Assembly (NCBI GenBank): GCA_038087875.1
Contig: CM075988.1
Span: forward strand, 3,534,001-3,598,000
Length of the DNA: 64,000 nt
Origin: Malacoraja senta
Taxonomy: Eukaryota
Direction of reading: 5' to 3'
Positions 121 through 61,133 of this stretch are shown one piece after another. The position numbers were made by a program, and so were the translations under genes. The stretch's first letter is position 1, and every line of letters begins with the position of its first letter. The notes beneath the pieces are model-generated. The model saw nothing but the letters and a program-made list of their open reading frames with translations. It was not told the DNA's origin and searched no databases.

Positions 121-1458
121 GGTACACAAAAATGCTGGAGAAACTCAGCGGGTGCAGCAGCATCTATGGAGCGAAGGAAATAGGCAACGTTTCGGGCAGG
201 AACCCTTCTTCAGACTGATAGGGGGTGGGGAGAAGAAAGGAAAAAAGGCGGAGGTGGAGCCCGAGGGCTGGGGGAGGGGAGGAGACAACCAGAGGGCTGA
301 TGAAGGGGAGGGGACAGCAAGGGCTAGCAGAATTGGGAGAATTCAATGTTCATGCCCCCAGGATGTAGACTGCCCAAGCGGAATATGAGGTGCATTTCCT
401 CCAATTTCCGGTGTTGCTCGCTGTGGCCATGGAGGAGACCCAGGACAGAGAGGTCAGATACGGAATGGGAGGGGGAGTTGAAGTGCTGAGCCACCGGGAG
501 GTCAGGTTGGTTATTGCGGACCGACCGGAGGTGTTCGGCGAAACAATCGCCAAGCCTCCGCTTGGTCTCACCGATGTAGATCAGCTGGCATCTAGAGCAG
601 CGGATGCAATAGATGAGGTTGGAGGAGATGCAGGTGAACCTCTGTCGCACCTGGAACGACTGCTTAGGTCCTTGAATGGAGTCGAGGGGGGAGGTGAAGG
701 GACAAGTGTTGCATCTCTTGCGGTTGCAAGGGAAAGTACCCGGGGAGGGGGTGGTACGGGAGGGAAGGGAAGAATTGACAAGGAAGTTACGGAGGGAGCG
801 GTCTTTGCGGAAGGCAGACATGGGGGGAGATGGGAAGATGTGGCGAGCGGTGGGGTCACGTTGGAGGTGGCGAAACTGACAGAGGATCACTTGTTGTATG
901 ACGGCTGGTGGGGTGAAAGGTGAGGACTAGGGGGACTCTGCCCTTGTTGTGAGTGGGGGGATGGGGAGAGAGAGCAGTGTTGCGGGGTATGGCAGAGACC
1001 CTGGTGCGAGCCTCATCTATGGTGGAGGAGGGGAACCCCCGTTCCCTGAAAAATGAGGACATTTCGGATGCCCTGGTGTGGAACGCCTCATCCTGGGAGC
1101 AGATGCGGCGTAGAGGGAGGAATTGGGAGTGGGGGATGGATTCGTTACAGGAAGCAGGGTGGGAAGAAGTGTAGTCCAGATAGCCATGGGAGTCGGTAGG
1201 TTTGTAGTGGATGTCGGTAAGAAGTCTATCACCTGCGATGGAGATAGTGAGGTCAAGGAATGGTAGGGAACTGTCGGAAATGGTCCAGGTGTATTTGAGT
1301 GCCGGATGGAAGTTGGTGGTGAAGCGGATGAAGTCAGTCAGTTGTGTGTGGGTGCAGGAGGTGGCACCAAAGTAGTCATCGATATAGCGGAGGTAGAGGT
1401 CGGGGATAGGGCCCTGGTACGCATTGAACAAGGATTATTCTACGTACCCGACTAAGAG
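121..1458 (-). mobile_element. Penelope-like retroelement, 5'-truncated: RT C-terminal half, GIY-YIG endonuclease and 3' pLTR
   Basis: ORF 856-1431 has LRYIDD, FLDL and KPTDSHGYL RT motifs. ORF 324-890 has a CxxxxCxxC linker and NLIYCIRC...YIGET..RL...EH (GIY-YIG). There is a frameshift near 880 and a possible 7-bp TSD gcaggaa (114-120 / 1459-1465). Confidence 0.93.
184..215 (-). ncRNA. Minimal type I hammerhead ribozyme motif in the Penelope pLTR
   Basis: Minus strand reads GU-CUGAAGA-A-GGGU-UCCU-GCCC-GAAA-C-GUU-GC: conserved core boxes, stem II, and a loopless palindromic stem III (AACGUU) of the type described for PLE hammerheads. Confidence 0.8.
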
Positions 1459-1469
1459 GCAGGAATGTC

Positions 1470-1600
1470 GGATAGTGTTCTGGGTCCGTCAGCTCCTGGG
1501 AGAGTGCGTGGTGGGGTGGTGTCTGTGGGCAGAGGAGGATCTCAGCCTGCTTTTCTCACAGGTTGGCAGACATGGCTTATCCAGCAGTCCACTTCTGTCT
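1470..1600 (-). mobile_element. Old RTE-clade LINE fragment
   Basis: Degenerate minus-strand similarity to the RTE RT region (REGLW...LRLLH...TDP-like); collinear with the other RTE pieces. Confidence 0.4.
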
Positions 1601-1608
1601 GATTTTTT

Positions 1609-1900
1609 AGTTTAGTTTAGAGATACAGCGCGGAAACAGGCCCATCGGCCCATCGAGTCCATACCGACCTGTGATCCCCGCACACTAACACTATCCTGCA
1701 CCCACGAGGCACAATTTACAACTATACCAAACCTATTATCCTCCAAACCTGTACGTCTTTGGGGTGTTGGAAGAAACCAAAGATTTCGGAGAAAAGCCAC
1801 GCAGTCATGGGGAGAGCGTACAGACAGCAGCCGTATTCAGGATCGAACCCGGGTCTCTGGCGCTGTGAGGCAGCAACTCTACCGCTGCGCCACCATGCCG
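1609..1900 (-). mobile_element. tRNA-derived SINE (HE1/V-SINE-like)
   Basis: A box TGGCGCAGCGG, B box GGTTCGATCC, conserved body GGTTTCTTCCAACACCCCAAAGAC, CR1-like tail and (CTAAA)n. Confidence 0.88.
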
Positions 1901-2044
1901 CCCTGGAACAGGTGGCTAAGTCGGGCAGATGGTTGGACCACAGTAGTGTCACGGGTCATGGGAACTAGACGTGACCATGACCTTACTGGATGACAGACCA
2001 GGCTCGATGGGCCGATTGGCTTCCACCCTTTATCTTCTAAAAAC

Positions 2045-2410: not shown

Positions 2411-2835
2411 ATATAAGGAACTGCAGATGCTGGTTTACAATAGACAACACAAAGCGCTGGAGTAACTCAGCAGGTCAGGCAGCATGTTTGGAGAATGTGG
2501 ATAGGTTATGGTTCAGGTTTGGACCCTTCAAACTCAGCATGAGTTCAGACTCAGCATGAATAGGTGACATTTGGGCCAAGACCTAATATCTTCTGGTAGA
2601 CACATGATGCAGGAGCAACTCAACGGGACAGGGATGTCAATAGATTGGAGATGGTGCAGTGGAGATTTACCGAGTCTGGAGGCTGTCGTTACTCGCTGTC
2701 AGTGGGCTATTTCTATGGTCTTTGCACTAATTGGGGATTGTGCTTTGGTTTGGCAATACTTCACGGAACTGTACGCAAAAAAAGTTCACTGTACATTTGT
2801 ACATGTGACAATGTATGGAGCACGGTGACAATGCA

Positions 2836-3785: not shown

Positions 3786-3789
3786 GGCC

Positions 3790-4390
3790 ATTTGCACTCT
3801 GTCTAGATGGTGTCCATGCTGCCATGTTGGGAGGACACAGTCAGATCCATTGGGGACTGTGTAGGAAGGAACTGCAGATGCCGGATTAAATCGAAGATAG
3901 ACGTAAAACGCTGGAGCAACTCAGCGGGTAATGCAGCATCTCTAGAGAGAAGGAATGGGTGACGTTTCCGGTCGAGAACTGAAGAATTCTTCTGCAGGAA
4001 GAATTTTGAGTCTATCCACTCGGGGGCAGTGGTTGAGGAGGACGAGGGCAATGGGTTTCTGTGTGGTGGGCAGCAGAGGGACATCTCCAGAGTTACTGCA
4101 GTCAGGCATGTCTCCTCTCCTCTCCTGAGGTGGCTCATGGTTACTGATCCTTGGGATACCCTTCTCTTCCCAGACGTAGGGAGAGATTTGAGATTGACTC
4201 TCTTGACAACCAGTTTACAAACTTTACCGGGGATGCTGCCTGCTCCTGAGGCCCTGTTATTGCTCTTGTTCCGGATGGCCTTTCTGACTACAAGTGGTGG
4301 CAAAACTACCCGGGCTGGGCTGCCGTGGGCTGGAACAAGGGCACGTCCATCAAGGATGGGGTTGTGGTTAAGGAGATCTTCAATGTAAGA
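3790..4390 (-). mobile_element. Old RTE-clade LINE fragment, split by a hammerhead mini-element at about 3858-3985
   Basis: EDLLN...VRKAIRNKSNNRASGAGSIPGKVCK and, in another frame, GDMPDCSNSGDVPLLPTTQKPIALVLLN, resembling the RTE KAIxxLKNNKASGxDGIP and GDxxDCxNYRGISLL motifs. Confidence 0.7.
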
Positions 4391-4605
4391 TACAGACACA
4401 AGTTTAGACACAAGCTGCTGGGGTAATGCAATGGGTCGGGCAGTATCTGTGGAGAAAATGGATAGGTGACGTTCCAGGATGGGACCCTTCTTCAGACTGA
4501 AGAAACCTCACCTATCCATTTTCTGCAGTGATGTTGCCTGACCCACTGAGTTGCTCCAGCTTTTTGTGTCGATCTTTGGTATAAACCAGCATCAGCAGTT
4601 CTTTT
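4387..4605. mobile_element. Palindromic Penelope-pLTR/hammerhead mini-element
   Basis: Inverted arms meeting at cttcttcagactgaagaa. Confidence 0.75.
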
Positions 4606-4685: not shown

Positions 4686-4874
4686 TAAGAAAGAACTGCA
4701 GATGCTGGAAAAATCAAAGATAGACAAAAATGCTGGAGAAACTCAGCAGGTGAGGCAGCATCTATGGAGCGAAGGAATAGGTGTCGTTTCGGGTTGAGAC
4801 CCTTATGTCACATATTTCCTTCGCTCCATAGATGCTGCCTCACCTGCTGAGTTTCCCCAGCATTTTTGTCTACC
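4686..4874. mobile_element. Palindromic Penelope-pLTR/hammerhead mini-element with 11-bp TSD
   Basis: Inverted arms closely related to pLTR 121-215; direct repeat ctgttcttggt at 4675-4685 and 4875-4885. Confidence 0.85.
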
Positions 4875-5065
4875 CTGTTCTTGGTGGTCAGTATAGTAGG
4901 GGCGAAACTTCCGGGTTGAACATGGAATGAACAGCTATGTGTGAGCGTGGCTCCCGATTTCTGCTCAAGTCTACTTGTTTATCTTTGTCATATTCTTGAG
5001 ATAACCCACTATTGAACACGATGAAGGACTCGAGGCAGTATTAAGCACCTGATACAATAAGCCAA

Positions 5066-5944
5066 ATGAGCCGTCGAGCTAAAACCGGGGGAAAAGGCAG
5101 TGAAGTCTCAAGCAAGAGAGCTGCAGCTTTGGCACCGCTGCCTGAAGCTGGGCTTGAACTACCAGAGGATCTGGAGAGGCTTCGTTCAGCACTCCTTGCC
5201 GATATGACACAAGCGGTTAACTCTGTCCTAAAAAGAGAACTTGAAGTGGCTTTGTCGCCGGTGAACACCAGTCTGGAACAATTTAAATCCTATTACGAGA
5301 CGCACGATGAACGCATTCGTGAGGTTGAAGGCGGCCTGAATGACCACAGTGACAGACTGGTGAGCGCTGAAACTGCCATAGCTACATTACAGAGTGAAAA
5401 CGCACTCCTGAGAGTGAAGCTAGATGACCTCGAGAACCAGTCGCGGAGATCCAACCTAAGGGTGATTGGGACTCCCGAAAAGTTGGAGGGTTCGGACCCT
5501 GTTAAATTTATGACTGAGTTTTTTGAAGAAGTGTTGGTGGCTGATTTCTTCCCAATACCTCTTATGCTTTCGCGTGCCCACCAAATTGGACCTACATGAA
5601 CCAACGTCCCGAATATCAAGCCATCTAAGCCACGAGTGTTCCTGGTTCTCTTTCATTACTTCCAGGATATACATCGTATCATCACCAAACGGAGGCAGGA
5701 GCTGTCCTTCCGAGGGCACCGGGTGTTTTTTCATGAGGATTTCAATGCGGAGCTGGGGAGAAAACGTGCAACTTCTAGGGAAATAAAATCCCTGCTCTAT
5801 GAGAAAGGGGTTCGGTTTGGCCTCCTGTATCCTGCCCAGCTCCAGGTCACTCATGAAGGTAAAAACCACTACTTCAATACACCAGAGGCTGCCAAAAGGT
5901 TTTACTACTCGCGCTGGGGAGGTGACGGCCGTGAAGAACAATGA
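5066..5944 (+). pseudogene. L1 ORF1 (coiled coil, RRM, CTD), disrupted near 5600
   Basis: LDDLENQSRRSNLRVIGTPE, RAHQIG, FFHEDF, FGLLYPAQLQVT motifs. Confidence 0.9.
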
Positions 5945-6112
5945 CCTTTTAGGATATCCACGCGGCATTGGCAAGGCCTCCTGCGGCGGTAAACTGTTAA
6001 TCTTTGTAAGATTTAATTTGTGGAAATGTAAATGTCTATAATTGCTCTCTGGGATAAAAATTTTACTTCATTCCTTCTCGTAACGTTTTGCTTGTCTGGG
6101 GTTATCTTTAGC

Positions 6113-6144
<32 letters not shown>

Positions 6145-6159
6145 ATATCTATATTTAAA

Positions 6160-6243
<84 letters not shown>

Positions 6244-6697
6244 TATTACACGGTTCGACACAACTCATAAAGTCTCATTGTATGCGGATGACCTGCTCCT
6301 GTACATCGCGAACCCAGTCAGTTTTCTCCCTGTGATTATGAATATTTTAGAACGGTTTGGTGCACATTCTGGTTATAAACTTAACTACCAAAAGAGTGAG
6401 CTAGTACCGATTAACTTACCGGCTAAGCAGCTCCCTCGCTCTTTAACCTCATTCAAAAGGGCAGAGGATGGGTTTCGCTATCTCGGCGTTTTTATCACAA
6501 TACCCTTATCTGATATGTTCCGCACAAACTTTTTGCCTCTGGTTGAGAAAGCCGAAAAAGATTTTGATCGCTGGTCAGTCTTACCTCTATCCCTCGTGGG
6601 CCGGATAAATCTGGTTAAGATGGTTGTCCTACCCAAATTCCTCTATCTTTTCCAGCATGTCCCCATACTTATCACCAAATCTTTTTTTGACAAATTA

Positions 6698-7263
6698 TTA
6701 TTATTATTTTTTTTTTTTTTTTTTTTTTTTTAATTTTTATTTATTAGAAGTACATTACATTACAACCACATACATTAATACTCGTCATTTATATCATCTT
6801 ACAATTAATGTACTCCCTTTATTTATTTTTTTACACTAGAGAAAGAAAAGATTGAAAGAGAGAAGAAAGTGAAGGAAAAAGTGCAAGTGTAGAAAAGTGT
6901 AGAAAATGTAACAACAAAAAAGGACGAAGACCCTATAAGAGCGAAATTAAAAACAAAAAGAAAAAGAGTTAAGAAATAGGCCCTAAGAAAAGAAAAGAGA
7001 AAGAGAAAAAAAAGAGAAACAAATGTTTTTTTTTTTTGAGCATCACGTAAATAGGACATACCAACTCTTCAACTATCATCCCCCCTTACCCGACCTCAAT
7101 TTTTTATTTTTTTTTAAAGTACTTTTTCACCCTATGTTTGTAATAATTCTATAAATGCAGACCACGTCAGGTGGAAGTGATCTGGTTTACCTGCTAGGAG
7201 GAGTCTTATCTCTTCAAGGTGTAATGTTTCAAACATATTTGAAATCCACATATTTATAGTTGG
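6698..7263 (-). mobile_element. Short 5'-truncated AT-rich L1 (ORF2 C-terminus, 3' UTR, poly(A))
   Basis: Minus strand encodes PTINMWISNMFETLHLEEIRLLLAGKPDHFHLTWSAFIELLQT*; poly(T) at the left; TSD ttttttgacaaatta at 6683-6697 and 7264-7278. Confidence 0.92.
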
Positions 7264-8491
7264 TTTTTTGACAAATTAGAAAGGACAATATCTAAATTCT
7301 TATGGGGTAGCAAACCGGTCAGAATCCGAAAGGCGATACTGCAGTCGCCTAAGAGTGATGGCGGTTTGGCCCTCCCTGATTTTAGGCGATACTACTGGGC
7401 AGCTAACTTGCAAAAACTCCTGTATTGGATGAATGATGATTGCGAGCACCCACCGATCTGGGTATATATGGAAAAGGCGAGTTCACATCTCCCATTGCGG
7501 TCTGTCCTATGCTCCCAACTCCCCCTTTCTATAACATCTGTGGGTGCAGGCCCAATTGTGTCCCTTTCGCTCAAGATATGGAGTCAATTTAGGAAAAACC
7601 TCGGTTTACAGGGTCCTTCCATCTTGACCCCACTGCTTAAAAATCACATTTTTAAACCTTCAAGTATAGACCACGCATTTAAAACCTGGCATAGTAATGG
7701 CATCAGTAGTATTAAAAACCTATATAAGGATGGTATCTTCTCATCTTTCACGGAGCTCTCGTCTAACTGCAACCTCCCAACCACCTTTTTCGGTTTTTCC
7801 AGATTAGGGATTTTGCGAAGAAGACATTTCCCTACTTCCCAAATCGCCCTCCTGAAACCCTGACTGATATCATCTTAGCTTTAGACCCCAATCGGAAGAA
7901 ATGCATCTCTATTTTGTATAACTTGCTAGGGATGGTTTTATTGAAACCTCATACCTCATTAAAAGCTGCGTGGGAGGGAGAGCTGAATACGCAATTAACA
8001 GACCAGCAATGGGACTCTGCCTTGGATTTGATCCACTCTTCTTCCATATGCGCTCGTCATGGCCTAATCCAATGCAAAGTCCTTTACAAAGTCCACTATA
8101 CAAATGCAAGATTATCTAGAATGTACCCAGCTGTTAATGACACCTGTAACAGATGTTGTCAATCTCCTGCCAACCATAGCCATATGTTTTGGTCTTGCCC
8201 TAAGCTAGCAGCCTTTTGGAGGAGTGCTTTTGAATTGATAAGCAGAGCTTACGACCAGACTATTCTTCCAAATCCAATGTCAGCCATTTTCGGTACCCCT
8301 CCCAATACCAACCTCTCTGTTGCGGTGAAACGGGTCCTAGCTTTTACAACCTTGTTAGCCCGGAGACTGATCTTGCTTAGTTGGAGGCTCACCTGTCCCC
8401 CGACACACGCCCGTTGGATTAAGGAGGTGCTTTACAATCTGAAACTTGAAAAACTTAGGTTCTCTCTCAAAGGCTCTACCAAGACATTCCT

Positions 8492-11400
8492 TTTTTTTAT
8501 TTTTTTTTTTATTTTTTTTTATTTTTTAGAAGTACGGTAGATTACAGTAATGTACAACACGTATATATTAATACATTTTTTGTACCGCTTCACTTTTTTA
8601 AACTTTAAGAAAGAAAAAGAAAGAAGTAAGAAAAGTGAAGAAAGTGCGCAAAGGTTGTGAAGTGCAAAAGAGTGTTGGGAAAAGAAAGCCCCTTAGAAAA
8701 GAAGTTAGAGAAGGAAGTAAAGTTAGAAAATAGACCCTAGAAAAAAAAAGAGAAAGAAAGAAGGAACAATCGCTCTATTATAACTCTTATACCATACTTC
8801 ATAGAGAAGGAACTACCAACCAAGTCTGTTTTTATTTTACCTCCCATTACCAGGTCCAGATACCTTTTATTTATTTATTTGTTTTTCTAAATTACTATTG
8901 CACCTCATGCTTGTAATAGGTCCAAAAACGTAGACCACGTCTTTTGAAATTGATCTACTTTGCCTACTAGGAGGAATCTCATCTCTTCCAGATGTAATGT
9001 TTCCAACATATTTGATGTCCACATTTTTATTGTTGGTGTGGGCGCATTTTTCCAGAATTTAAGTATAAGCTTTTTTCCCATTATTAGCCCATAATTGAGT
9101 AAATTCTTCTGATACACGTTTAATTCAGGAATACCTTCCGATATTCCAAAAATAATCCATTCTGGTTTTGGTACCAGTTTTATTTTGATTAATTTTGAAA
9201 AAATATCAAATATTTCAAACCAGAATTTTTGGATTTTTGTACAAAAAACAAAAGAATGTGCTATGGTAGCTTCTTGACATATACATTTATCACAGATTGG
9301 TGAGACGTTAGGAAAGATTTTATTTAGTTTGGTTTTTGAATAATATAATCTATGTAATGTTTTAAATTGGATAAGCGTATGTCGTACGTTGATCGAGCAT
9401 TTATGCACCTGTAATAAATGATTATCCCAACTCTCTTTTGAAATTTTTATACCTAGATCTTGTTCCCAATCTCTTCTAATTCCATCTGTTGTGGGTATTT
9501 CTATATTTAAGATGATATTATATAAGTATGATATTAAATTAACTGATTCCGCCTTTGTCTTCATTGCTTCATCTAGTAAGTCGGAAGGCATATTATAATA
9601 ATCTTTTGTGTGTGTTTTCAAATAGTCACAGATTTGTAGATATTTAAAATAATGATTATTTTTCAAATTATATTTCAGTTGTAGTTGTTGGAATGATAGT
9701 AATTTTTCTAATTCATACAGATCTTCGAGCGTTTTAATTCCCATTCTTTCCCATTGTATAAATGCTTTATCTATGATTGAAGGTTTAAACGATGGGTTAT
9801 TGACTATTGGTATTAAGAGAGATAGGTTTCTTAATTTTAGATTCTGTTTTATTTGCTTCCATGTTCTAATAGTGCTATATATAATTGGATTTTTATTATA
9901 ATTTTTATTATTCAAATTTATTGGAGAGAGAATAATCGCTCCTATATTATTCGGGGAGCAATCCCCTTTTTCCATTATAATCCAGTCCACCTGCTGGGCA
10001 GAATTGTCCAGCAGGTGAATCATATTTTTAATATTTACTGCCCAGTTATAATACATAAAGTTAGGGAGCGCTAGACCCCCCAACTCTTTTCGTTTGTTAA
10101 GGTGTGTTCTTTGTATTCTGTGGGATTTGTAATCCCATATAAAATTTGTAATGTCTGAGTCCAGTTTTTTGAAAAACTTTTTTGGGAGATATATAGGTAT
10201 TGATTGAAATAGGTAAAGGATTTGTGGTAAGAAAATCATTTTTATAGCATTTATCCTACCTATTAAGGACATCGGAAGTGTTTTCCAAAATTTAATCAGA
10301 TTATTTAATTTCTTAAGTAGGGGATTATAATTAGCTTTAAACATATCATGGTAATTTCTAGTAATCTCAATTCCTAAATATTTGAATTTTTCCATAGCTA
10401 TTTTAAAAGGGAATTTCCTGAGATGTGTTGAGTCTTTTGGTTTAATCGACATAATTTCACTTTTGTTCCAATTTATTCTATATCCTGAAAAGGATCCAAA
10501 GTCCTCAATTAAGTTTAATATATTTGGTATACTAATTTGTGGTTTTGTGATGTACAGTAGTACATCATCAGCATATAGGGATAGTTTGTTGTTTGAATAT
10601 TTTGTGTTATAACCGTGAATATTCGAGTGTGTTCTTATTTTTTCAGCAAGGGGTTCAATTACCAAAGCAAATAACAGCGGTGATAGTGAACATCCTTGTC
10701 TGTTGCCCCTAGATAATTCGAATTTTGAAGATAATATATTATTAGTTAGTATTCTAGCCGTAGGTTTGTTATATAGTAGTTTTATCCATGCAATAAAGTT
10801 TTCTCCCAATTGGAATTTTTGCAATACTTTGATCATATAGTCCCATTCTACTTGATCAAACGCTTTTTCTGCGTCCAGTGAGATGATAGCTAACTCTTGG
10901 TCATAAGATTTATGTGAATGCATTATGTTAAGCAAACGTCTCAAATTATTAAATGAGTGTCTCTTAGGTATAAATCCTGTTTGATCCTCATGTATTAGTC
11001 TACTAACATACTTGCTTAATCTATTGGCTAATGTTTTTGCTATTATTTTCTGATCCGTATTTAACAAAGCAATAGCTCTATATGATCCTGGTTCTTCTAT
11101 ATTTTTATCTTTTTTAAGTATTAATATGATCGTTGATTCCGCTAGTGTTTCAGGTAGGTTTTGCTCTTTATAAGCATATGTATACATTTTTTGTAATCGT
11201 GGAGTAACTATATCATAAAAAGATTTATAAAATTCATTACTGAATCCGTCTGGTCCTGGTGTTTTTCCATTTTTTAGTGTTTTTATTGTGTCTTCTATCT
11301 CCTTAGAAGTAATTTGTGCTCCCAGTTCCTCTTGTTCCCTGCGTTCTAATTGTGGTAGATTACAATTATCTAAAAATTCTGAGATTTTATTATTGTCTAT

Positions 11401-12660
11401 TGACGTTTTAGATGTGTATAGATTCTGGTAAAATTGAGCAAATCTTTTATTAATATCCTTGGGTAGTGTTAATACTTCCCCTCTATCTGATTTAATCTTT
11501 AATATTGCATTCTCTTTTTCCCGTTTTTTAAGTTGTCGTGCTAGAAGTTTGTGGGGTTTGTCCCCGAATTCGAAGTGTTCTTGTTTTGTGATTTGAAATA
11601 ATGTTATAACTTTCTCTGACAGTAATTTATTTAACTGAAATTTCAGTAGTAGTATTTTATTATGTTTATCCATAGTTGGGTCTTTAGCATTATCTATATC
11701 TAACTGTTTTATTTGATCTTCTAAGTGTCTTTGTTCATTCTTATTCTTTTTATTTTGATAAGCTTGAAATGAAATAATGACTCCTCTTATAAATGCTTTG
11801 AAGGATTCCCATAATAACGTGGGGGATATCTCTGGTGTATCATTTAACTCAAAAAATAGATCCATCTGTTTTTTTAGATAGATACTCCCTTGAGGGTCTT
11901 TTAAAATTTGTGAGTTAAACCTCCAGAACGGTTTATTCATAGACATTCCTTCTAGTTTTAGAACAAAAGTTAACGGAGAATGATCTGAGATCGCATTAAT
12001 ATGATATTTAGGATTCAGAGATTGCGAAATTAATTTTGTATCCACAAGAAAATAGTCTATCCGTGAATATGTTTTATGCACCATTGAATAAAACGAGTAA
12101 TCCCTTCCCGTCGGGTTTGCAATCCTCCATACATCTGTTATATTTGTGTTTTCCATATATGTGTGTAAGAGTTCACTGGTTTTAGATTTCGTCTGACCTT
12201 TTTGTTTTTGCATCGATTTATCTAAATAAGGATCTAAAACACAATTAAAATCTCCTCCGATTATAACATTTTGATAATTAGATTCTGCAATTATATTCAG
12301 AATTTTATTAAAAAATTGAGGGTTATCAAAGTTGGGCGCATATATGTTTACCAGCGTAATTGGCATATTATTGATCTCCCCTGCTACTATAAGATATCTC
12401 CCTTCCTTATCTACTATAGTGTTCTTTGATTTAAATGGAATTCCTTTACGAATAATAATTGCAGTACCTCTAGATTTGGAGGTAAATGAAGAGTGAAATG
12501 TTTGGCCTATCCAGTTCGCCCTCAGTCTTGTCTGATCTTGCTGTTTAAGATGTGTTTCCTGTAGAAACGCAATGTCCGTGTTGTATGATTTCAACTGAGC
12601 TAGTATCTTGCCCCTTTTAATAGGTTCATTAATCCCCCTTATATTCCAACTACATATTCC
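8492..12660 (-). mobile_element. Young AT-rich L1, truncated at the very start of ORF2, flanked by a 234-bp direct duplication
   Basis: Patterned poly(T) tail from 8492; uninterrupted ORF2; 8258-8491 equals 12661-12894. Confidence 0.95.
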
Positions 12661-13062: not shown

Positions 13063-13123
<61 letters not shown>

Positions 13124-17817: not shown

Positions 17818-17998
17818 TTAAGAAGGAACTGCAGATGCTGGAAAAACGAAGGTACACAAACAAAAACTGGAGAAACTCAGCAGCATCTATGGATCAAAGG
17901 AAATAGGCAACGTTTCGGGCCAAAGCGTTGCCTATTTCCTTCGCTCCATAGATGCTGCTGCACCCGCTGAGATTCTCCAGCTTTTTTTTTGTACCAGT
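17818..17998. mobile_element. Palindromic Penelope-pLTR mini-element with 10-bp TSD
   Basis: Inverted arms matching 121-196; ctctctgtct at 17808-17817 and 17999-18008. Confidence 0.78.
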
Positions 17999-35441: not shown

Positions 35442-36132
35442 AGTGGTAGGTAGATTGTTGTGTCCAATTCCCATTCACCAGGTAGAGAGGTACTGCCTGT
35501 CAACTCGTGGGTAATATTGTGTGGAGAAATGATGCCCCCCCTCTGACTGGGGAAAGCAAACTTCGGCAAATATATTACCAGTGTTCTCTTGAGTTATTTT
35601 CGTCATTCCTTTGATGGGAAGACTACACAGGGTCTTGGAAACATTGGGGCACAAAGCCGATTATCCCCTTGGATACAAGAAAGCTGCTCCAGAATCTGGA
35701 AGACCATTATTGGAATATGGGATTGGAGAGCTGTTCAGGCGGAGGACGATAGGTTATCATGGATAGACGCAAGGAACTGCAGATGCCGGTTTACAACAAA
35801 AAGCGCACACAAAGTGCTGGTGTAACTCAGTGGATCAGGCAGCATCTCTGGGGAACGTTAATTGGTCGATATTTTACTTCCTGAAATATCACCCATCCAT
35901 GTTTCCCAGAGACACTGCCTGGCCCGCTGATACTCCAGCCTTTTGTACCTTAGTTTACCTATGTTTTACATCATGTTCGGCACCAACATAGTGGGCCGAA
36001 TGGCCTGTTCCTGTGCTGTACTGTTCTATGTTCAAAAGAGGACAGTTCTAACTATTTATTAAGTGCCCTGCTCTTAGTGTCAAATCTCTCAAAGCATGGG
36101 TAATGATATACCGTTGAAGTGCGGAATAGTTG

Positions 36133-36694: not shown

Positions 36695-36785
36695 ACGATA
36701 GACACAAAATGTGGAGTAACTCAGCGGGACAGGCAACATCTCTGGAGAGAAGGAATGGGTGGTGTTTCGGGTCGAGACCCTTCTT
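36695..36785 (-). mobile_element. Single-arm hammerhead/pLTR mini-element with 11-bp TSD, inside a CR1 tail
   Basis: ctccacctcca at 36684-36694 and 36786-36796. Confidence 0.8.
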
Positions 36786-37609
36786 CTCCACCTCCATATC
36801 CGGCAGCACGTTCCAGGGACATCACCCTTAATGTAAAAAACTTGCCCCGCACCTCCCCTTTAAACGTTTCCCCTCTCACCTTAACATATCCAGATGAATA
36901 TTAACCCCTTTCCATTTGGGTTAGTGTTGTGAAAACCTTATTGCATTCCCACTGTTTTTTTTTAAAATATTCCACATAAGTAATTTATTAACTTTATACA
37001 ATTGGGAATATTTTGTGTGGGATTTCGGGCCTCACTGTTGCACAGGCCGAGATTTTAGTGTTACAAGTGAGGTGTCTGGAACTGATGGGCTTAGTGGCGG
37101 AAGCAAGAGGGACAGGCTTTCTGCACAGGTTCTATCTTTGTGTACAATGTTGGCAGTCTGCCCCGGTTACACAATATTATGTGCGGGTTTTGTTGGTTTC
37201 TGTAAGTTGCCCCTAGTGTGCAGGGAGTGGATGGGAGAGTGGAGGTAATATAGAACTAGTGTGAAGGAGTGGTCGATGGTCAGCATGGACTCAGTGGGCC
37301 GAAGGGCCTGTTTCTGCGCTGCGCCTCTGAACTGTTGGGTCAGGTTGTGGCCAGTGTTGGTTGGGTGGTGTGGACAGCAATGAGAGGGCGGGCCCCAAGG
37401 TCAACTGGTGGAAGTGTGGGGACACTGAACCAGTGTTGTCAGGGTCAGGGTCAGATGTAGGGGGACAGGGTCAAGGTTAGGGTGGGAGGGGAGGGGGTGG
37501 AACAGGAGTGAAGAGCAACAGATGAATGGATTTCACTTTGGGGGGGAAATTCATTCCTTCTGTTGGTGGAGGAATTTGAATTTAAGGACTGGGAGTGTAG
37601 CCTGGCGTC

Positions 37610-39869: not shown

Positions 39870-40500
39870 ACTCTTCACACACGGAGGCTGCACGGCCGAA
39901 CAAACACAACTTCACCGCAGTTACTGGGCGAACGTTCTTCAGTCTGTCAGCGTTGACCTTCATGAGGCCACAAAGATGGCAGCTCGGCTCAGAAGGTGGA
40001 CATCGGTCCACGGCGCATAGATGACGGAAGGGTCTCCTGCCCAGAAGCCCAGGCACGGACCACCCTGGTTGGAGACAGCACCTTCGTGGGGGTATTTCGT
40101 GACCAGTGTGTGGCTCTGGGTTGTCGCTTGACCCAACACGTTGCCTGCTTTCACTTGGAGAAGGACCTCGACACAAAGTGCTGGAGTAACTCAGCGGGTC
40201 AGGCGGCATCTCTGGAGAGAAAAGATGGGCGGCCTTTCGGGTCGGGAGCCTTCTTCAAACGCCGACCCACCCACGTTCTCCGGAGATATTGCTGAGTTAC
40301 TCCAGCACTTGGTGTCCACGACCAACTCCAGAATGTCTGTGTCTATCTTCGGTATAAACCAGCATCTGCCATTTCTTTGTGAGAAGTTCTGGAGCAGTTT
40401 GGTTTCCCGTCCTCCACCATGCTTCGAGATGCCGAGGAATGATCTGCGGTTGACGGTGACACCTCCATCCCGTCAGCGATGGGTCCAGACCAGAGATGGA
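39870..40500 (-). mobile_element. Very old Tx1-clade LINE remnant, split by a palindromic pLTR element (40170-40378)
   Basis: Weak similarity to WTDR...VTV..D..K.LG.W and RA.IF...RS motifs of Tx1 ORF2. Confidence 0.35.
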
Positions 40501-42432: not shown

Positions 42433-42632
42433 TCAAGGTACACGGTGAGTGAGCATCACATCTGTACTGCAAATCAAATCCGCTTTAAAAAAGGTAGGCA
42501 GGAAGGCTCAAAGATCCCTTTGTTATTCACACAGAGGGTGGCGGGTGTATAGAATGAGCTGCCGGAGGAGGTAGTTGAGGCATGGATTATCGTCAACATT
42601 CGAGAAGCAATTAGACAGGTACATGGATAGGA

Positions 42633-43102
42633 CACAAAAGCTGGAGTAAGTCAGCGGGACAGGCAGCATCTCTGGAGAGAAGGAATGAGTGACGTTTCGG
42701 TAGAGACCCTTCTTCAGAATGAGGGTCAGGGTAGAGGGAGACTAGAGATATGGAAGGGTAAGGTGTGAAAATGACATATCAAAGCAGAATGGTTAAGGAA
42801 GTGTAGAGTGGTTGATTGTTGGCTGTGGGGAAGGTGACAAGGGGGTGACAGTAAAATTAATCAGGAGGACAGTGAAACTAGTCGGAGAACTAGGATGGGG
42901 GGGGGGGGGGCGGGGACGGAGAGAGAGGGAAAGCAATGGTTACTTAAAATTAGAGAAATCAATATTCATACCACTGGGCTGTAAGCCACCCAAGCAAAAT
43001 ATGAGATGCTGTTCCTCCAAATTGCGTTTGGCCTCACTCTGACAGAGAGGCGGACTGAGTGGAGGTGTTCAGCGAAACGATCACTGAGCCGGCGCTTGGT
43101 CT
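42633..43102 (-). mobile_element. Penelope 3' fragment (GIY-YIG C-terminus, pLTR, hammerhead) inserted in CR1
   Basis: KTKRRLSDRFAEHL...LEEQHLIFCLG; CTGAAGAAGGGTCTCTACCGAAACGTC; tggatagga repeated at both ends. Confidence 0.85.
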
Positions 43103-44551: not shown

Positions 44552-44969
44552 CTCCATGCGGTCCTGTGTAGTATTGCTCTATGTTCTATGAAACAGACAA
44601 CCTGTGTGAGAGTGGATGCCTCAAACTGCAATGGTGGGATGACCAGATCATTGACCTTGGCACAAAATCCTGGAGTAACTCAACGGGACAGGCAGCATCA
44701 CCGGATAGAAGAATGGATGTTTGTTTCGGGTTGAGTCCCTTCTTCAGACTGGACCTGAAACATTTACCCGTTCCTTCTGCCCAGAGATGCTGCCTGTCCC
44801 GCTGAGTCACTCCAACATTTTTGTGCCTATCTTTGGTGTAAACCAGCATCTGCAGTTCCTTCCTACACAGATAATTCACCTTGCTCCTCTGGTTCTCATT
44901 CATCTCCAATCACCTCTCCTCCAGCCAGATCAGTGATCATTGACAAGCCTTCCTGAGTGATTTTAGCAT

Positions 44970-47070: not shown

Positions 47071-47318
47071 AAAATATCACTGTGTGATGAACTTCCCCGC
47101 ATATCTGCTTTAAATGTTGTCTCTCTCATCTTAACGCAATGCCCTCTAGTGGTGGACATTTCCACCCTGAGAAAATGTTTCTGATTGTTTACCCAGTCTA
47201 TGCCTCTCAAAATATTGTAGACTTCTGTCAGGTCTCCCCTCAGCCCTCGACATTGCAGAGAAAACAATCCAAAGTCTGTCCAACCTCTCCCTGTAGCCGA
47301 CACCCCCTAATCCAGTAT

Positions 47319-47535
47319 GTGTAGGAAGGAACTGCAAATGCAGGTTTACCCCGAAGATAGACACAAAATGCTGGAGTAACTCAGCGGGACAGGCAGCATC
47401 TCTGAAGAAAAGGAATATGTGACGTTTCGGTTTGAGACCCTCAGTCTGAAAAAGGGTCTCGACCTGAAACTTCACCTATTCCTTTTCTCCAGAGATGCTG
47501 CCTGTCCCGCTGAGTAACTCCAGCTTTTTGTGTTT
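47319..47535. mobile_element. Palindromic hammerhead/pLTR mini-element
   Basis: Arms centred on tcagtctga. Confidence 0.8.
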
Positions 47536-47948
47536 ACCCCTTGACCCAGTCTCCCCTCAACCTCTGCAGTTCCAGCGTGTTTACTGTAAAATATTTCATG
47601 ATTTCATATTTAAGGCAGAGATAGATAGATTCTTGATTAGTACGGGTGTCAGAGGTTATGGGGAGAAGGCAGGAGAATGGGGTTAGGAGGGAGAGATAGA
47701 TCAGCCATGATTTAATGATGGGGTAGATTTGATGGGCCGAATGACCTTATTCTACTCCCATCACATGATCTTATGATCTTATGATTCTGCCCCTGGAGAA
47801 ATGCCAATCCCTCATCGTCTCTACCCTTTACCCCTTCCCTGTGCCTGAGGCTGAGGTCCAATGGACCCCAGTGGAGTTTACAACAAAATAACATTGGGAA
47901 CCAAATATACTCAGACAACTGGGAAACAAGAATGTAGAATGGTTGAAC

Positions 47949-48035: not shown

Positions 48036-48942
48036 CTGTGAACAACAGACAGACGATGCCTTCATTCCCCGTCCGCAATCCCCCCTCAATATAGTCACAC
48101 CCCAACACTTTGTTCAATCATTGAATCATTGAAAGATCCAGGTCGGCCCACCGAGTCCACGCCGACCACTCATCACCCACTCACATGAGGTCACTGTTGT
48201 CCCACTGTCTCGTTCACTCCCTACATACCAAGGGCAAGTTGCAGAGGACAATTAACCTACAAACCCGCACGTCTTTGGGATGTGGAACCCAGAGGAAACT
48301 CCAAACAGGCAGCCTCCATAGTCAGGATCGAACCGGGGTCTCTGGCGCAATAAGGCAGCAACTCTACTGCTGCGCCACTGTGCTGCCGTGTCCAGTGCAT
48401 GTTGCTTGCTGCAGCGAGGAGCTCTGATTTATGCAGCAGCAGTAGATGTTTATGCTGGCTAGGGAGGAAATGGGCGTCGTGACTTGTGACATAATTTCTA
48501 GGAAAACATTGCTCCCGTGCGGTGAGGTTAGTTATCACAGAGCCGACAGCTAATTTCCTGCAGGAAACAATGACATGTGGATATTATTGCTGGCACGTTC
48601 GATCCCAAGCTGAATTGCTATTATGCACAATTTGTACGTGAAAAATGAAGGCTCTCACAGTTCCATTCTCCAGTTTGCACAGTGTTCTCTGAACTCACAC
48701 AGTGTTCTGTCAATGGACACAGTGCTGGAGTAACTCAGCGGGTCAGGCAGCATCTCTGGAGAGCAGATTTTCTCTGGGGAAAACGGTTGGGCGATGTTTT
48801 GGGTCGGGATCCTTCTTCAGACATTAGTGTTCTGTGAGCTTGTGCTCAGAATGAAGGTGCTGTGGGTGCTTATTGTATGGTGGGCTGTGAGCTGTATGTT
48901 TACAATGTGACTGACTCGCCCAATCCAAATTGCAGAAGAAAT

Positions 48943-49196
48943 GTGTAGGAAGGAACTGCAGATGCTGGTTTAAACTGAAGATAGAAGCTGAAGTAACTCA
49001 GTGGGACAGGCAGCCTCTCTGCAGAGAAGGAATGGGTGATGATTCGTGTCGAGACCCTTCTTCAGTCTGGTGACGTTTTGGGTCGAGACCCTTCTTCAGT
49101 CTGAAGAAGGGTCTTGACCGGAAATGTCACCCATTCCTTCTCTCCAGAGATGCTGCCTATCCCGCTGAGTTACTCCAGCTCTTTGTGTCTATCTTG
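48943..49196. mobile_element. Palindromic hammerhead/pLTR mini-element with duplicated hammerhead segment
   Basis: Two tandem minus-strand cores (about 49038-49068 and 49069-49100), then a plus-strand core at 49101. Confidence 0.85.
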
Positions 49197-49224
49197 GCTT
49201 GTATTAAGTGACCAGGCTAAGCTG

Positions 49225-50844: not shown

Positions 50845-51360
50845 GAGCCACAAGGAACTGCAGATGCTGGAACCTTGAGCAAAACATAAAGTGCTGGAGG
50901 AACTTGCCCAGTGCGATCAGTCAGCATCTGTGGATGGAGTGGACAGACGACATTTTGAGTTGGGGCGCTTCTTCAGACTCAATATTGAGATGTTGAACAC
51001 AAGGAAAGAGATAGATAGATTCTTGATTAGCATGGGTGTCAAGGTTTATGGGGATAAGGAAGAGATAGATTAGAAGGAAGAGATAGATTAGCCATCTCTA
51101 AATGGGCCAAATGGCCTAATTCTGCTCCTATCACATGACCTTATGACTTATGAACTACAGATGCTGGTTTACAAAAAAAGACACAAAGTGCTGGAGTATT
51201 CCAATGGGTCAGGCAGCATTTCTGGAAAACATGGACAGGTGCTGTTTCTGGTCGGGACCATTGTAAAGAAGGTTCCTGACCTGAAACGTCATCTATCCAT
51301 GTTCTCCAGAGATTCTGCTTGACCCGCTCAGTTACCCCAGCACTTTGTCTCTTTTTCTTT
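50845..51360. mobile_element. Two pLTR/hammerhead mini-elements inserted sequentially at one site
   Basis: atattgagatg present at 50834, 50982 and 51362. Confidence 0.8.
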
Positions 51361-55500: not shown

Positions 55501-55984
55501 ATACCTTCAGGTACAACTCCAAGTCACACACTATGCTTCGCCTTCTCCTTCCTGTGGCCATTTCTTCCACTATCCCTCCCCTCTCCAACCCACCCTCCTG
55601 TCCCCTTGCACTTATATCCCTCTCTCTGGTAACATTTCACTCCTCCTCCTCATCTGACATTCTTCTGACACATTTTCATCTCTAGCTTTGTCACTTACTG
55701 CACCCATCTGCCAATTAATTCCCCCCACCCTCATCTGCATCCACCTATTACTTGCCAGGCTGTATCCTGTTCCCACCTCTTTTCCAGCTCCCCCCCCCCC
55801 CCATTAGTTAGTCCAACGAAGGATCCCGACCCATCTATTATCCATTCCCTCCACAGATACTGCCTGACCTGCTGAAATCCTCCAGCACTTTGTGTTTTGC
55901 TCAAGATTCTGCCATCTGCAATTCCTCGTGTCCTCCCAAAACTATCCTGTAAGTTTAAAACTGGTGGAGGAACCTCGTGAAGGA

Positions 55985-56700
55985 ATATTCTCAGTCCGCC
56001 TGGACCTACCTGATCTCCTAGTTGCCAAATACTTTAATTCCCCTTCCCATTCCCACACTGACCTTTCTGTCCCGGGCCTCCTCCATTGTCAGAGCGAGGC
56101 CAGATGCAAATTGGAGGAACAGCTTGGGTAGCTTACACCCCAGGAGTATGACTATGATTTCTCTAACTTCAAGTAACCCCTGCTTTCCCCCTCTCTCCAT
56201 CCCCCCCACCCAAGTTGTTGTACCAACTTCAACGTCATCTTTGGGGAGAGGGGCTGGAGGGGGGGGGGGGGGGTAGAACAAAGGTTGACCAGGCACGGGA
56301 TGCTTTGCAACTTTGTCAGTGCCCTTTAAGTGGCGACTATTTGCATACCTTGGGAATGCAAGCAAATTATTTCACTGTGCCTTGTCACATGTGATAACAA
56401 GGTATTCATCCACTCATTCATTGTTCAGTCTCATTGTCTGAAACCCATTTTCACCCAGACCACAGCTAACAATGACCTGTTTCCTTTGTCATTGTTACTT
56501 TTTTGCATATCTTTCATTCATTTGTTCCATATCTCTCTATATCACTGTCTATATCTCTTGTTTCCCTTTCCCCTGACTCTCAGTCTGAAGAAGGGTCTCA
56601 ACCCGAAATGTCACCTATTCCTTTTCTCCAGAGATGCTGCCTGACCTGCTTTTTGTGTCTATCTTCAGTGTAAACCAGCATCTGCAGTTCCTTCCTACAC
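55985..56700 (+). mobile_element. Penelope 3' remnants: GIY-YIG C-terminus, then pLTR with hammerhead at 56585
   Basis: PDLLVAKYFNSPSHSHTDLSV.GLLHCQSEA.CKLEEQ; tcagtCTGAAGAAGGGTCTCAACCCGAAATGTC. Confidence 0.75.
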
Positions 56701-56983
56701 ATTTCCAGATTGCCAATCCTTCATTGCCGCTGGGTCTAAATTCTGGTACTTGCCATCAAACAACAACTTGTGAGTCCCTTCACTAGAAGGACTACAGCAG
56801 CTCAAGAACCAGATCAGCACCAAGTTCTCAGGGGAAACTAGGAATGTGCACTCTATGCAGACTTTGGTGACATATCATGAAACACTAGTTAATAAAAAGT
56901 TATCTGAGTCAATGGGGAAATGTTTTGCCAACATTCTAAATTCAGTTCTAAATTGCTTGGAACTAATACAAATCCAATGTGGA

Positions 56984-57290: not shown

Positions 57291-57387
57291 CACATTCGAA
57301 AAGCACTCAGTTGTCTAATCTGTGCTCATTTACGCTGCGTTCATATCTCCAGTGTAAGCTTAGCCTGGCCACTTAATACAAGCCAAG

Positions 57388-57571
57388 ATAGACACAAAAA
57401 GCTGGAGTAATCAGCAGGACAGGCATCATCTCTGCAGAGAAGGAATGGGTGATGTTTCGGGTCTCAACCCAAAAAGTCACCCATTCCTCTCCACAGACAT
57501 TGCCAGTCCTGATGAGTTATTGCAGCTTTTGGTGTCTATCTTTGGTTTAAACCAGCATCTGCAGTTCCTTC
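57388..57571. mobile_element. Palindromic pLTR mini-element with 14-bp TSD
   Basis: taatacaagccaag at 57374-57387 and 57572-57585; arms join within stem II (gggtctcaaccc). Confidence 0.82.
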
Positions 57572-58025: not shown

Positions 58026-58447
58026 CCCTAAATCTGATTGTTTTTATTATTTGTCATGTGAAGTAGAACATCGTATTACCTTTACTTCAATTTATTTTAA
58101 ACTGGCTTGAACGGCGTGACCCTGGTTTTACATTTCATAATCCATGTTGTCTCCGTCTCCACAACAATGTCTGACATCTCCTTTCAAAGATGGCTACCTC
58201 AGCATTGGCCTATCCCTCTCAACCTGTCCTATCCATGCACCTGTCTAAATATTTCTTAAATGTTGCGATCCTGCCTCAAATGTAGCGATAATATCTCCTC
58301 CGGCAGCTCGTTCCATTCATCCGCCACCTTTTGTGTAAAAAAGTTGCCCCTCAGGTTTCTATTATTACTGGTTTATTTCCAGCTTATGACCCAAGATGTA
58401 TCTCCTGATCTTCAAGAGGCAATGGATTGTCAAGTGGTGTAATGTAA

Positions 58448-59132
58448 AGGCCCTGTCCCACTTACGTGTCCTTGGCATGCAAATTACGCGACCTCGTCGT
58501 CGCGTTGAGGCGCATGGGCATCGTATGGCCGCCCGTGGCCGATCCCACTGCGAAGCGCGGAGGGGTATGGAGTTGTGCGCGGCGCTCCGAAATTTTGTAG
58601 CGAACGAAATCTTTGCGTGCTACTGGCCTGTCGGGTAACTGACGGCCAATGTATGGCAGGCCCAAGACCCTGGCGCGACGCAATGTCTCACCTTCAACAG
58701 CAGCAGAAGCAGGCAAACGATCGCCGAGCTCGGCCTGGGGCTCACGGCCGTTGCGGTCCGGATCCACCCCCACTAATACTCCCAGAGTGGGGCCAAGAAA
58801 TTTGGAGATGGACACAAAATGCAGGAGTAACTCAGCGGGACCGGCAGCATCTCTGGAGAGAGGGAATGGATGACGTTTCGGGTCGAGACCCTTCTTTCAG
58901 ACTGAAGAAGAGTCTCGACCCGAAACATCACCCATTCCTTCTCTCCAGAGATGCTGCCTGTCCCGCTGAGTTACTCCAGCATTTTGTGTCCATCTTCAAA
59001 TGACGTCACGCGCTCCAGACGGCTGTGCGGACGCATGAAGTCGTGTGCGACCTTCGCGGGACCGTCGCGCCTCAACGCGACCACGAGGTGGCATAATTAG
59101 TGTGCCAAGGACACATAAGTGGGACAGGGGTT
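58448..59132. mobile_element. MITE (PIF/Harbinger-like) with long TIRs and TAA TSD, containing a palindromic hammerhead element (58801-59000)
   Basis: aggccctgtcccacttacgtgtccttggca ... tgccaaggacacataagtgggacaggggtt; TAA on both sides. Confidence 0.82.
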
Positions 59133-59349
59133 TAAGGGTTAAACAGACTGTCAGCTAAAATGGATTTGTCAGCTAAATGAATAGCATTGCTTGTCAAGCA
59201 AGCGGGCTCGCTTCGAAAAACAATTAGATGTTTGGGAAAATGCTTGGGGCAGCTGCAAAGAATGACTAGATCATGAGGCGACCTGCAAGGACACTGAGAC
59301 AAACATTTACCTTCTCTCGGACATCCGACACCAGCTCGGCACCTGATAT

Positions 59350-59775
59350 TTTTTAGAGATACAGCGCGGTAACAGGCCCTTCGGCCCAACAAGTCCGCGC
59401 CGACCGATGATCACCTGTACCCCAGTTCAATAATACACACGAGAGACGATTTGCAGAAGCCAACTAACCTAAAAATCAGCACGTCTTTGGAGTGTTGGGG
59501 GAAAGCGGAGCACCGAGTCCTCACCGACCAGCGATCCCCGCACGCTAACACAGCCCGACACACACTAGGGACAATTCACATTTACACCAATCCAATTAAC
59601 CTACAAACCTGTACATCTTTGGAGTGTGGGAGGAAACCAAAGAATCTGGAGAAAACGCAGGCGGTGACAGGGAGAACGTACAAACACCGTACAGACAGCA
59701 CCCGTAGTCAGGATCGAACCCGGGTCTCTGGCGCTGTGAGGCAGCAGCTCTACCGCTGCGCCACCGTGCCGCCCT
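59350..59775 (-). mobile_element. Two nested or tandem HE1/V-SINE-like SINEs
   Basis: Two bodies and one head. Confidence 0.8.
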
Positions 59776-60956
59776 ACTTCCCGATGTGACAAATAATTCT
59801 TGTTTTCGCTACTGAGGAGGATAGTTAGTTATGAAACATAGTCAACTGCTGATCTCAGATTAGGGTTTTCATTAAATTAATTAATTTAATTAGCTCAGGC
59901 TTTTAAGTTTTAAAATGTTTTTTCCGCAAGAACTTCTGGGACTTCACTTTGGGCCGAGCTTCCAGAGTCAAAGGCCAGGTCGTGCAGGATCTCAAAAAGA
60001 TCTCCAGACCAAGGAGATTATATATGGAGTACAGAACATTTTTGAAGTAAGTGAACCTCAGGAGATTTCGCAGTGGAGCAGTCAAAATGTGGAAACAAGG
60101 AACTGCAGATGCTGGTCCCCAAAGATAGACACAAAGTGGTGGAGTAACACTGTGCAGGTGCAGCGGTAGAGTTTCTGCATTACATTACAGCACCAGAGGC
60201 CCGGGTTCAGTCCTGTGTATGGCTGTTGCCTTCATGGAGTTTGCATGTTCTCCCTATGACTGTGTGGGTTTTCTCTGGGTGCTCCGGTTTCCTCCCATAA
60301 CCCAAAGACGCGCAGATTTGTAGGTTAATTGGCTTCTGTAAATTGTCTCCAGTGTGTAGGGTAGAACTAGTGTATGTCTGATCGCTGGTTGGCCCAGACT
60401 CAGTGGGCTGAAGGCCCTCATTCCACGCTGTACCTCTAAACTTAGCGGGTCAGGCAGCATCACTGGTGAAGGGTCGGAAGTAGGGTCTCGACCCCAAACG
60501 TCACCGATTCCTTCTCTCCAAAGATGCTGCCTGTCCTGCTGAGGTACTCCAGCTTTTTAAGTCTATCTTCAGGATCACTGGAGAAGATGGATAGGTGATG
60601 TTTCGGGTCGGCACCCTTCTTCAGACTGTTCTGACCCACTATGTTACTTCAGATCTCTGTGTCTAGCTTTGTAAACCAGCACATGCAGTTCCTTGTTTCG
60701 ACAGGCTGTTGAAGTTACGACCTTCAGTCAGAAGGATGTTTGAGAGATCATTTGTCATTTTCCGCCGTGTTTTTTTTTTTTTATTAATGCTTTATCTGAA
60801 GTTGAATTGCTATTGTGTTACTATTTTATTGCTTGATTGTTGCTTTAATATTGCTCCAATAAATCTTTGTGCTTCAGATTTTATATTGTCTGAGTGTCCT
60901 TCTCCATCATTGATCCGAACCCTTGAAGCCTTGTTTCCAATAACACACATGCAAGG

Positions 60957-61133
60957 TGTAGGAAAGAACTGCAAAAGCTGGTTTAAATGGATGATAGACA
61001 CAAAATGCTGGAGTAACTCAGCGGGACAGGCAGCATCACTGGAGATGTCTCGACCCGAAACGTCACCCATTCCTTCTCTCCAGAGATGCTGCCTGTCCCA
61101 CTGAGTTACTCCAGCATTTTTTGTCTATCTTCG
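60957..61133. mobile_element. Palindromic pLTR/hammerhead mini-element
   Basis: Inverted arms; plus arm retains tctcgacccGAAACGTC. Confidence 0.78.

Follow-up and report, generated by a model that had tools for sequence, protein, structure and literature searches.

Hammerhead-bearing mini-palindromes of Malacoraja senta as probable minimal insertions of a Penelope-like retrotransposon

The window analysed here is a stretch of 64,000 nt of Malacoraja senta DNA (assembly GCA_038087875.1, contig CM075988.1), to which all positions refer, and it contains 24 loci with a short repeat, called the arm in the following, which carries a hammerhead ribozyme motif and derives from a Penelope-like element (PLE). 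Within 13 of these loci two arms lie head to head and form a palindrome, and a reversed-sequence control of 600 kb gave no arm match. A first-pass annotation of the window had offered two explanations for the palindromes, namely a non-coding, fold-back class of ribozyme-bearing retroelements mobilised by Penelope, or a very frequent abortive insertion product. The data fit the second of them, and they support the origin from a PLE, the insertion of each palindrome in a single event and the high abundance that had been claimed. The short mirror-image copies are a known PLE insertion architecture in minimal form and at very high copy number, and not a new ribozyme class.

The parent element is represented in the window by a 5'-truncated copy of subfamily B (118..1434, minus strand), which holds the C-terminal part of the reverse transcriptase (RT; 856-1434), part of a GIY-YIG domain (324-926) and the 3'-untranslated region (3'-UTR). 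This copy is 96% identical to a genomic copy, L131, with an open frame of 1224 aa, in which an RVT_1 match (E=1.3e-6) and, at the C-terminus, a GIY-YIG match (E=0.0016) were both just below the curated cut-offs of Pfam; a Pfam scan of the two window pieces of the open reading frame (ORF) alone gave no match, nor did a PDB sequence search with the full PLE ORF. Since the frame of L131 starts directly after the arm and an extension of about 35 nt, the arm is the pseudo-long terminal repeat (pseudo-LTR) of the PLE and the extension is its "tail"; a pseudo-LTR in partial tandem, with the ORF after the repeat, is what was found. The parent is a PLE with RT and GIY-YIG, i.e. of the endonuclease-containing (EN+) type, and the class assignment is made at that level and not to clade. 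In the copy at 118..1434 the arm (218-118, minus strand) is without tail and has an intact hammerhead motif. The 3' ends of two longer copies of subfamily A lie at 42626..43100 (minus strand; arm 42722-42626, without tail) and 56000..56702 (plus strand; arm 56580-56702, tailed and with the motif intact). Repeat coordinates are counted below from the hammerhead base C3 as +1, on the strand encoding the PLE protein. Elsewhere in the genome long stretches of the youngest PLE copies of subfamily B (L221-L250) show 98-100% identity; these copies often stand in tandem arrays, and recent activity is indicated.

Head-to-head pairs with the tail on the left arm are located at 4686..4874 (B-type, with a target-site duplication (TSD) of 11 bp), 17818..17995 (subfamily B, joined inside hammerhead stem II, with a TSD of 14-16 bp including one mismatch), 35771..35946 (old), 47317..47536, 48941..49195 (with the hammerhead segment repeated internally), 51152..51352 (old) and 60956..61133, and those with the tail on the right at 4405..4604 (subfamily A), 40170..40377 (degenerate), 44661..44869 (imperfect TSD of 16 bp) and 57388..57571 (exact TSD of 14 bp). 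A tail-less palindrome at 58800..59001 is enclosed in a repeat that resembles a miniature inverted-repeat transposable element (MITE), bounded by terminal inverted repeats (TIRs) and with TAA on both sides (58448..59132). Single arms on the minus strand are found at 2415..2632 (old, with tail and a second, degenerate arm piece), 3858..3977 (with tail), 36695..36786 (without tail, TSD 11 bp), 48717..48822 (5' end at -2, TSD 10-12 bp) and 50845..50981 (old, with tail, 5' end at -3, TSD 11 bp), and an old one of a diverged subfamily on the plus strand at 55835..55926. The locus at 60033..60694 is a composite of arms interrupted by another repeat, and in one part of it (60115-60033, minus strand) the tail continues into the start of the PLE reading frame. 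An arm is present at 17 of the 18 positions which the first-pass annotation listed; no element starts at 50995, the next one being that at 51152-51352. The listed elements at 2416, 3858, 36695, 48716 and 50845 are scored here as single arms and the one at 60095-60700 as composite, and TSDs, claimed for several elements, were recovered at 4686, 57388, 17818, 44661, 36695, 50845 and 48716. The claimed minimum of two subfamilies was borne out by two main ones, A and B, plus an intermediate haplotype. A 28-nt consensus had been said to be retained by many elements, wholly or in part; it has no exact match in the window, with 3 matches at up to two mismatches and 11 at up to four.

Some flanks in the window recur. 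About 37 nt of outer flank (49196-49232 and 57348-57387) recurs next to the tail-less arms of two palindromes, those at 48943 and 57388, which lie 8 kb apart and inverted; this flank includes the 14-bp TSD, the identity is 89% over 117 nt with the arm, and the centres of the two palindromes differ. It may be the result of local templated copying or of an old rearrangement. An empty site for the element at 57388 was sought in four other sequencing runs and none was seen, repeat copies swamping the matches. One flank sequence of 11-13 nt is present three times (50834, 50982 and 51362) around two neighbouring elements, which suggests a composite insertion or a local duplication in a fragment of a long interspersed nuclear element (LINE).

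The genome was sampled by 140 evenly spaced 10-kb stretches of the 21 largest contigs, 1.4 Mb in total, with small contigs outside the sample and no weighting by length. It contains 437 arm loci, or one per 3.2 kb, covering 3.6% of the sampled bases, and 93 of them (21%) include a head-to-head pair, i.e. one palindrome per 15 kb; extrapolation gives about 6e5 arm loci and 1.3e5 palindromes in the whole genome. The density of one element per 3 kb estimated earlier applies to arms of any kind and not to palindromes. In the same way, the description of most elements as head-to-head inverted dimers holds for the window and not for the sample, where the majority of arm loci are single arms and ends of longer copies; the excess of single arms over palindromes, about 4:1, had been overlooked. 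The analysis of structure covered 98 palindromes consisting simply of two arms, to the exclusion of complex clusters; the spaced sample contributed 82 of them, the window 10 and loci chosen for long ORFs the other 6.

These mirror-image inserts are 100-280 letters long. In the 82 palindromes where both arms reach at least +82, the tail is on exactly one arm in 70, with 40.4 expected (p=9e-12). TSDs of 8-23 bp flank 45 of the 98, vs 1 of 193 shuffled flank pairs, and the outer ends which they define fall at +87..+102 and +118..+137. Pairs are oriented head to head in 98 cases vs tail to tail in 4, and four inverted pairs of much larger PLE copies (3.6-5.7 kb) have the same one-tail build with TSDs of 13-16 bp. 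Single arms also end without the tail (139) or with it (91). The junctions of the one-tail palindromes are distinct in 67 of 70, which answers in the negative the question, raised in the first-pass annotation, of whether palindromes at different loci share them. Over all 98, the arms overlap at shared bases in 40, are joined bluntly in 5 and are separated by extra bases in 53; recurrent junctions fall on built-in self-complementary spots, 10 on TCAG-N-CTGA (including 4 from MITE cargo) and 3 on stem II. TSD detection showed a strand bias (30/42 vs 9/28), for which a script error was excluded and which is absent from a second sample. RNAalifold on 24 natural arms kept a helix of 8 bp between arm and tail, with no compensatory change. 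Short tandem arrays of arm fragments of 34-70 nt occur inside some palindromes (L100:8140-8582, L125:1300-1570 and L119:789-1246); as their units lack a complete hammerhead core, they are minisatellite-like and not retrozymes.

If palindromes were inherited as units, an arm should resemble the arm on the same side at other loci more than that on the opposite side. The difference between same-side and cross-side identity is 0.0009 for subfamily A (485 pairs) and -0.0008 for B (62 pairs), so that a unit lineage signal is absent. The palindrome carried as MITE cargo served as a positive control, with identities of 0.930 left to left, 0.912 right to right and 0.899 across; its arms resemble those of the same side, which shows that the test works. 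Identity between arms is only slightly higher within a locus (0.873 in A, 0.934 in B) than between loci (0.854 and 0.911, respectively), and in 40 of the 41 palindromes that could be scored the two arms match at subfamily-diagnostic sites, the exception resembling a nested insertion; from both facts it follows that the two arms came from one source lineage and then decayed separately. Palindromes that at first appeared to be chimeras of A and B are really an intermediate haplotype or a nested insertion. Because the junctions differ and the arms show no lineage as units, the palindromes likely form de novo. Nor are the free palindromes classical MITEs, the outcome that had been named as fatal to the ribozyme interpretation: their TSDs are variable in length, their ends asymmetric, and a unit lineage is absent; the exception is the palindrome at 58800-59001, which rides in a MITE.

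The hammerhead itself is mostly a relic. Both subfamily consensuses fit a minimal type I hammerhead in core boxes, stem II and NUH site, and stem II is preserved between them by a one-sided change. Of 565 arms, 68 preserve the strict motif intact, as do 13 of 209 palindrome arms, and a single palindrome among the 98 has it in both arms; the motif scan proposed earlier finds it in the window in 2 of 40 arms, both at ends of longer PLE copies (118-218 and 56580-56702) and none in a palindrome, and the accompanying Rfam gathering scan of the window gave no match. The core decays like its neighbouring sites, i.e. selective conservation is absent, and an extra conservation of the core in short copies disappeared after alignment-edge and subfamily sites were removed. 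The transcript of a palindrome would contain one sense and one antisense hammerhead and is predicted to fold into a long hairpin (-87 to -178 kcal/mol) in which the core pairs with its complement. 5' ends do not pile up at the cleavage site (4/166 single arms, 4/196 palindrome arms). Two or more consecutive same-orientation units with complete hammerheads, as in retrozymes, were not found, the palindromes being inverted and same-orientation neighbours being rare partial duplications. The arms resemble the minimal hammerheads of metazoan PLEs in the core boxes, the extra base before stem II, the absence of loop 3 and the palindromic 15.2-16.2, and differ by a stem II of 4-5 bp instead of 7-8 and by the decay of most copies; those hammerheads are described mostly as single motifs, with some opposite-strand pairs 100-700 bp apart (PMC4209133). 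Hammerhead counts in such genomes would be made up mostly of dead stumps, and long RNA hairpins may form where introns or UTRs read through palindromes.

Short copies also share a sharp 5' boundary, which had been overlooked. Outside palindromes, 140 copies extend at least to +5; the stop of 84 lies at -5..+5 and the other 56 continue, a stop hazard of 0.060/nt vs 0.002-0.006 elsewhere in the arm, and 91 of 196 palindrome arms end in the same interval. The ends fall at a conserved YCAGT just ahead of the hammerhead core, where -5..-1 is conserved across the subfamilies and -10..-6 is variable. YYANWYY, which we take to be the initiator pattern, is present at -5..+2 in 67 of 78 long copies; an internal promoter is reported for the Penelope of D. 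virilis (PMC2377424). Some complex loci restart repeatedly at -1..-4, which may be the template jumping expected at an RNA end, or later slippage. The barrier has about an even chance of being the 5' end of an RNA from the initiator-like site, and somewhat less probably it would be an early stall of the RT at the edge of a protein-bound domain. YCAG|T as a 3' splice site is disfavoured: A(-3) and G(-2) are kept at the stops above chance extension, and a common upstream exon was not seen. Four sets of sequencing-run contigs presumed to be RNA yielded nothing usable on starts, splicing or cleavage.

Taken together, we consider it probable that an abundant EN+ Penelope-like retrotransposon makes the palindromes de novo by twin priming, as its smallest insertions, and their fixed ends likely record where the copying of RNA by the element starts and stops. 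The priming, the order of events and the nature of the barrier are what we infer from the observed anatomy. On RNA from one source, both nicked strands of the target would act as primers for reverse transcription, with one cDNA beginning at the tail end (about +128) and the other at an inner site (about +93). Each would extend back over 90-130 nt as far as the barrier at YCAGT, and the joining of the two 3' ends, often at self-complementary spots, would yield two arms head to head, one of them tailed, flanked by a TSD; where a single strand was used, a single arm would result. The palindromic products are likely inert.

This layout has precedents. EN+ PLE insertions such as Pen2a of Adineta show an inverted pseudo-LTR, a one-sided tail of 30-40 bp and a TSD (PMC3846280; overview in PMC8557442), and are like the present ones in their head-to-head terminal repeats, a tail of about 35 nt at one end, the variable TSD, palindromes at the junctions and a parent with RT and C-terminal GIY-YIG; they differ in that here the whole insert consists of two arms only and the copy numbers are those extrapolated above. 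The anole Poseidon PAc nicks and extends both strands in vitro, uses uncleaved RNA and starts reverse transcription at two internal sites that delimit the tail, with the hammerhead just upstream (PMC11167929), and the two ends of the present palindromes match these two start sites in layout. Inverted mini-products and a 5' run-off site are not among the results in the available text of that study, and a sharp 5' boundary of short copies is likewise not described for EN+ PLE insertions in the available text of PMC3846280 and PMC8557442. We found no literature on such mini-palindromes in cartilaginous fish, outside Repbase, Dfam and subscription journals. The insertion architecture is already published; the present analysis adds a unit test with a positive control, numbers for the 5' barrier together with the observations that speak against it, and the capture by a MITE. 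How PLEs form inverted repeats and a one-sided tail is an acknowledged open question (PMC8557442), for which the natural palindromes, about 1e5 in number and alike in their strict one-tail rule, two fixed outer ends and a fixed inner barrier, provide quantitative predictions to be compared with an in vitro PLE assay.

Several observations weigh against twin priming up to a fixed barrier. The one-tail rule is broken in 12 of the 82 palindromes (11 with the tail on neither arm and 1 on both), 4 of these 12 being MITE cargo, and no TSD is detectable in 53 of the 98. A chimeric palindrome of two subfamilies was not found, which leaves room for a fold-back from one cDNA. Copies that span the junction from tail to ORF and reach the barrier stop there in 0 of 25 cases, all of these copies being very young and several being units of the same tandem arrays; a simple model in which the mRNA starts at -3 fails to predict this, and the alternatives are a separate short RNA with its start at -3 and a stall of the RT there that is confined to the time shortly after priming. 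An extra, cap-like G before the stop was not seen either.

On the former alternative a wider proposal can be built, which we regard as speculative: PLEs would have a second, dominant template, a short RNA from an initiator 3 bases before the core, whose run-off cDNAs, similar to "strong-stop" products, are inserted one at a time or in twin-primed mirror pairs and account for more than 3% of the genome. As the initiator lies inside the copied piece, the short copies may even re-seed themselves as a PLE-dependent short interspersed element (SINE).

Of the explanations that compete with twin priming, the best survivor, which we still hold to be unlikely, is that one cDNA from the tail end runs off, primes itself on a built-in palindrome and copies back to about +93, where the endonuclease resolves the product. 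The junctions that overlap at shared bases and recur at TCAG-N-CTGA and stem II would be expected of it, as would arms that nearly always belong to one subfamily, and self-priming has been proposed for rotifer PLEs (PMC3846280). Yet extra bases separate the arms at more than half of the junctions, and the final step requires an additional, hypothetical site-specific cut. The frequent tail-less ends of single arms also speak against it, as they indicate that +93 is used independently as a start site, in agreement with the in vitro result (PMC11167929).

Quite improbable, in our judgement, is a SINE-like non-autonomous family, in which the internal initiator of an arm drives its transcription and the PLE protein mobilises it again, the source being a single arm or one arm of a palindrome and each round producing a new single arm or palindrome. 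The sharp 5' boundary, ignored by long ORF-bearing copies, and the initiator-like motif within the copied segment agree with such a family, and in subfamily B a short copy resembles other short copies (0.976) slightly more than it does long ones (0.968). In subfamily A, however, the best identity is equal to both pools (0.934), and no diagnostic variant is significantly confined to short copies, a comparison of limited power with 58 long copies. The core, moreover, decays like its flanks, and the anole RT required RNA far past its start sites (PMC11167929), which the short copies lack.

The first of the two original options, a fold-back, ribozyme-active, retrozyme-like element propagated as a palindromic unit, is largely refuted and has hardly any probability left: high copy number, strong predicted hairpins and the existence of PLE-derived retrozymes in vertebrates (10.64898/2026.07.22.740005) speak for it, but the junctions nearly all differ, arm-specific lineage is absent, both outer ends map to the pair of end sites of the PLE, and the hammerheads, mostly in decay and intact as a pair only once, lie on opposite strands, are predicted to fold against their complement and show no pile-up of ends at the cleavage site. 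Non-LTR retrozymes are alike in being short and non-coding, with a type I hammerhead and kinship to PLE terminal repeats; they are same-orientation (head-to-tail) tandems in which two or more ribozymes are intact and set monomers or circles free (PMC7229834; 10.64898/2026.07.22.740005), whereas the present copies are inverted pairs or singles that end away from the cleavage site.

One palindrome has spread by another way, which had also been overlooked: the best genome matches retrieved with 58800-59001, 19 distinct ones, all have both flanks in common. This palindrome is cargo of a DNA-transposon-like repeat of about 690 bp, bounded by TIRs of at least two variants (58448-59132). The palindrome test is passed by 43 of 49 carrier loci, and four of the failing ones, when inspected, show deletions or interruptions and not pre-capture forms. 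The flanking 3-mers match in 21 of 35 copies and are mostly TAA or TTA. With its TIRs, short fixed TSD and copies descending as units, the carrier is a MITE; presumably it belongs to PIF/Harbinger, judging by the 3-bp TWA flank. A Kolobok-like MITE was rejected, as the 3-bp duplication fits better and the 4-bp TTAA rule (PMC9587614) fits fewer copies. It differs from other MITEs of DNA transposons by the captured PLE palindrome, and it alone resembles them in TIRs, fixed termini and 3-bp duplication, the free palindromes having no TSD of fixed length. MITE-borne palindromes number 3 in the 1.4-Mb sample, a few per cent of the palindromes, and the capture gives the ribozyme remnant a second, RT-independent route of spread. 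Variants of the cargo arms (e.g. +36, +77 and +90) occur on both arms and in all combinations (L001-L020, L191-L220), a hint that, once captured, the arms exchanged sequence by conversion or were flipped. A relative of the MITE at L040:9317-9722 has both TIRs and lacks the palindrome and about 70 adjacent bases; it is either a deletion or a pre-capture form.

The window has other features as well. LINE-1-like elements, labelled so from the look of their translations, lie at 8905-12834 and 63059-64000 on the minus strand and at 5045-8540 and 18833-21651 on the plus strand, with one uninterrupted frame of 1309 aa and several broken copies. What is probably the final coding exon of a host gene, with the motif THV at its end, is located at 40783-41268 (minus strand) and is presumably KIRREL/NEPH-like; a protein atlas search with the exon at 40786-41235 gave a weak lead only. 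Two inverted repeats are unrelated to the PLE arm, one at 26137-26214 and 26366-26443 (78 nt, 100% identical, spacer 151 nt), the other a pair of another abundant short repeat at 1817-1903 and 2046-2132. A long C-rich low-complexity tract extends over 13480-17970, with its head of about 200 nt duplicated at about 13480 and 15493, and an AT microsatellite (13033-13121) adjoins it.

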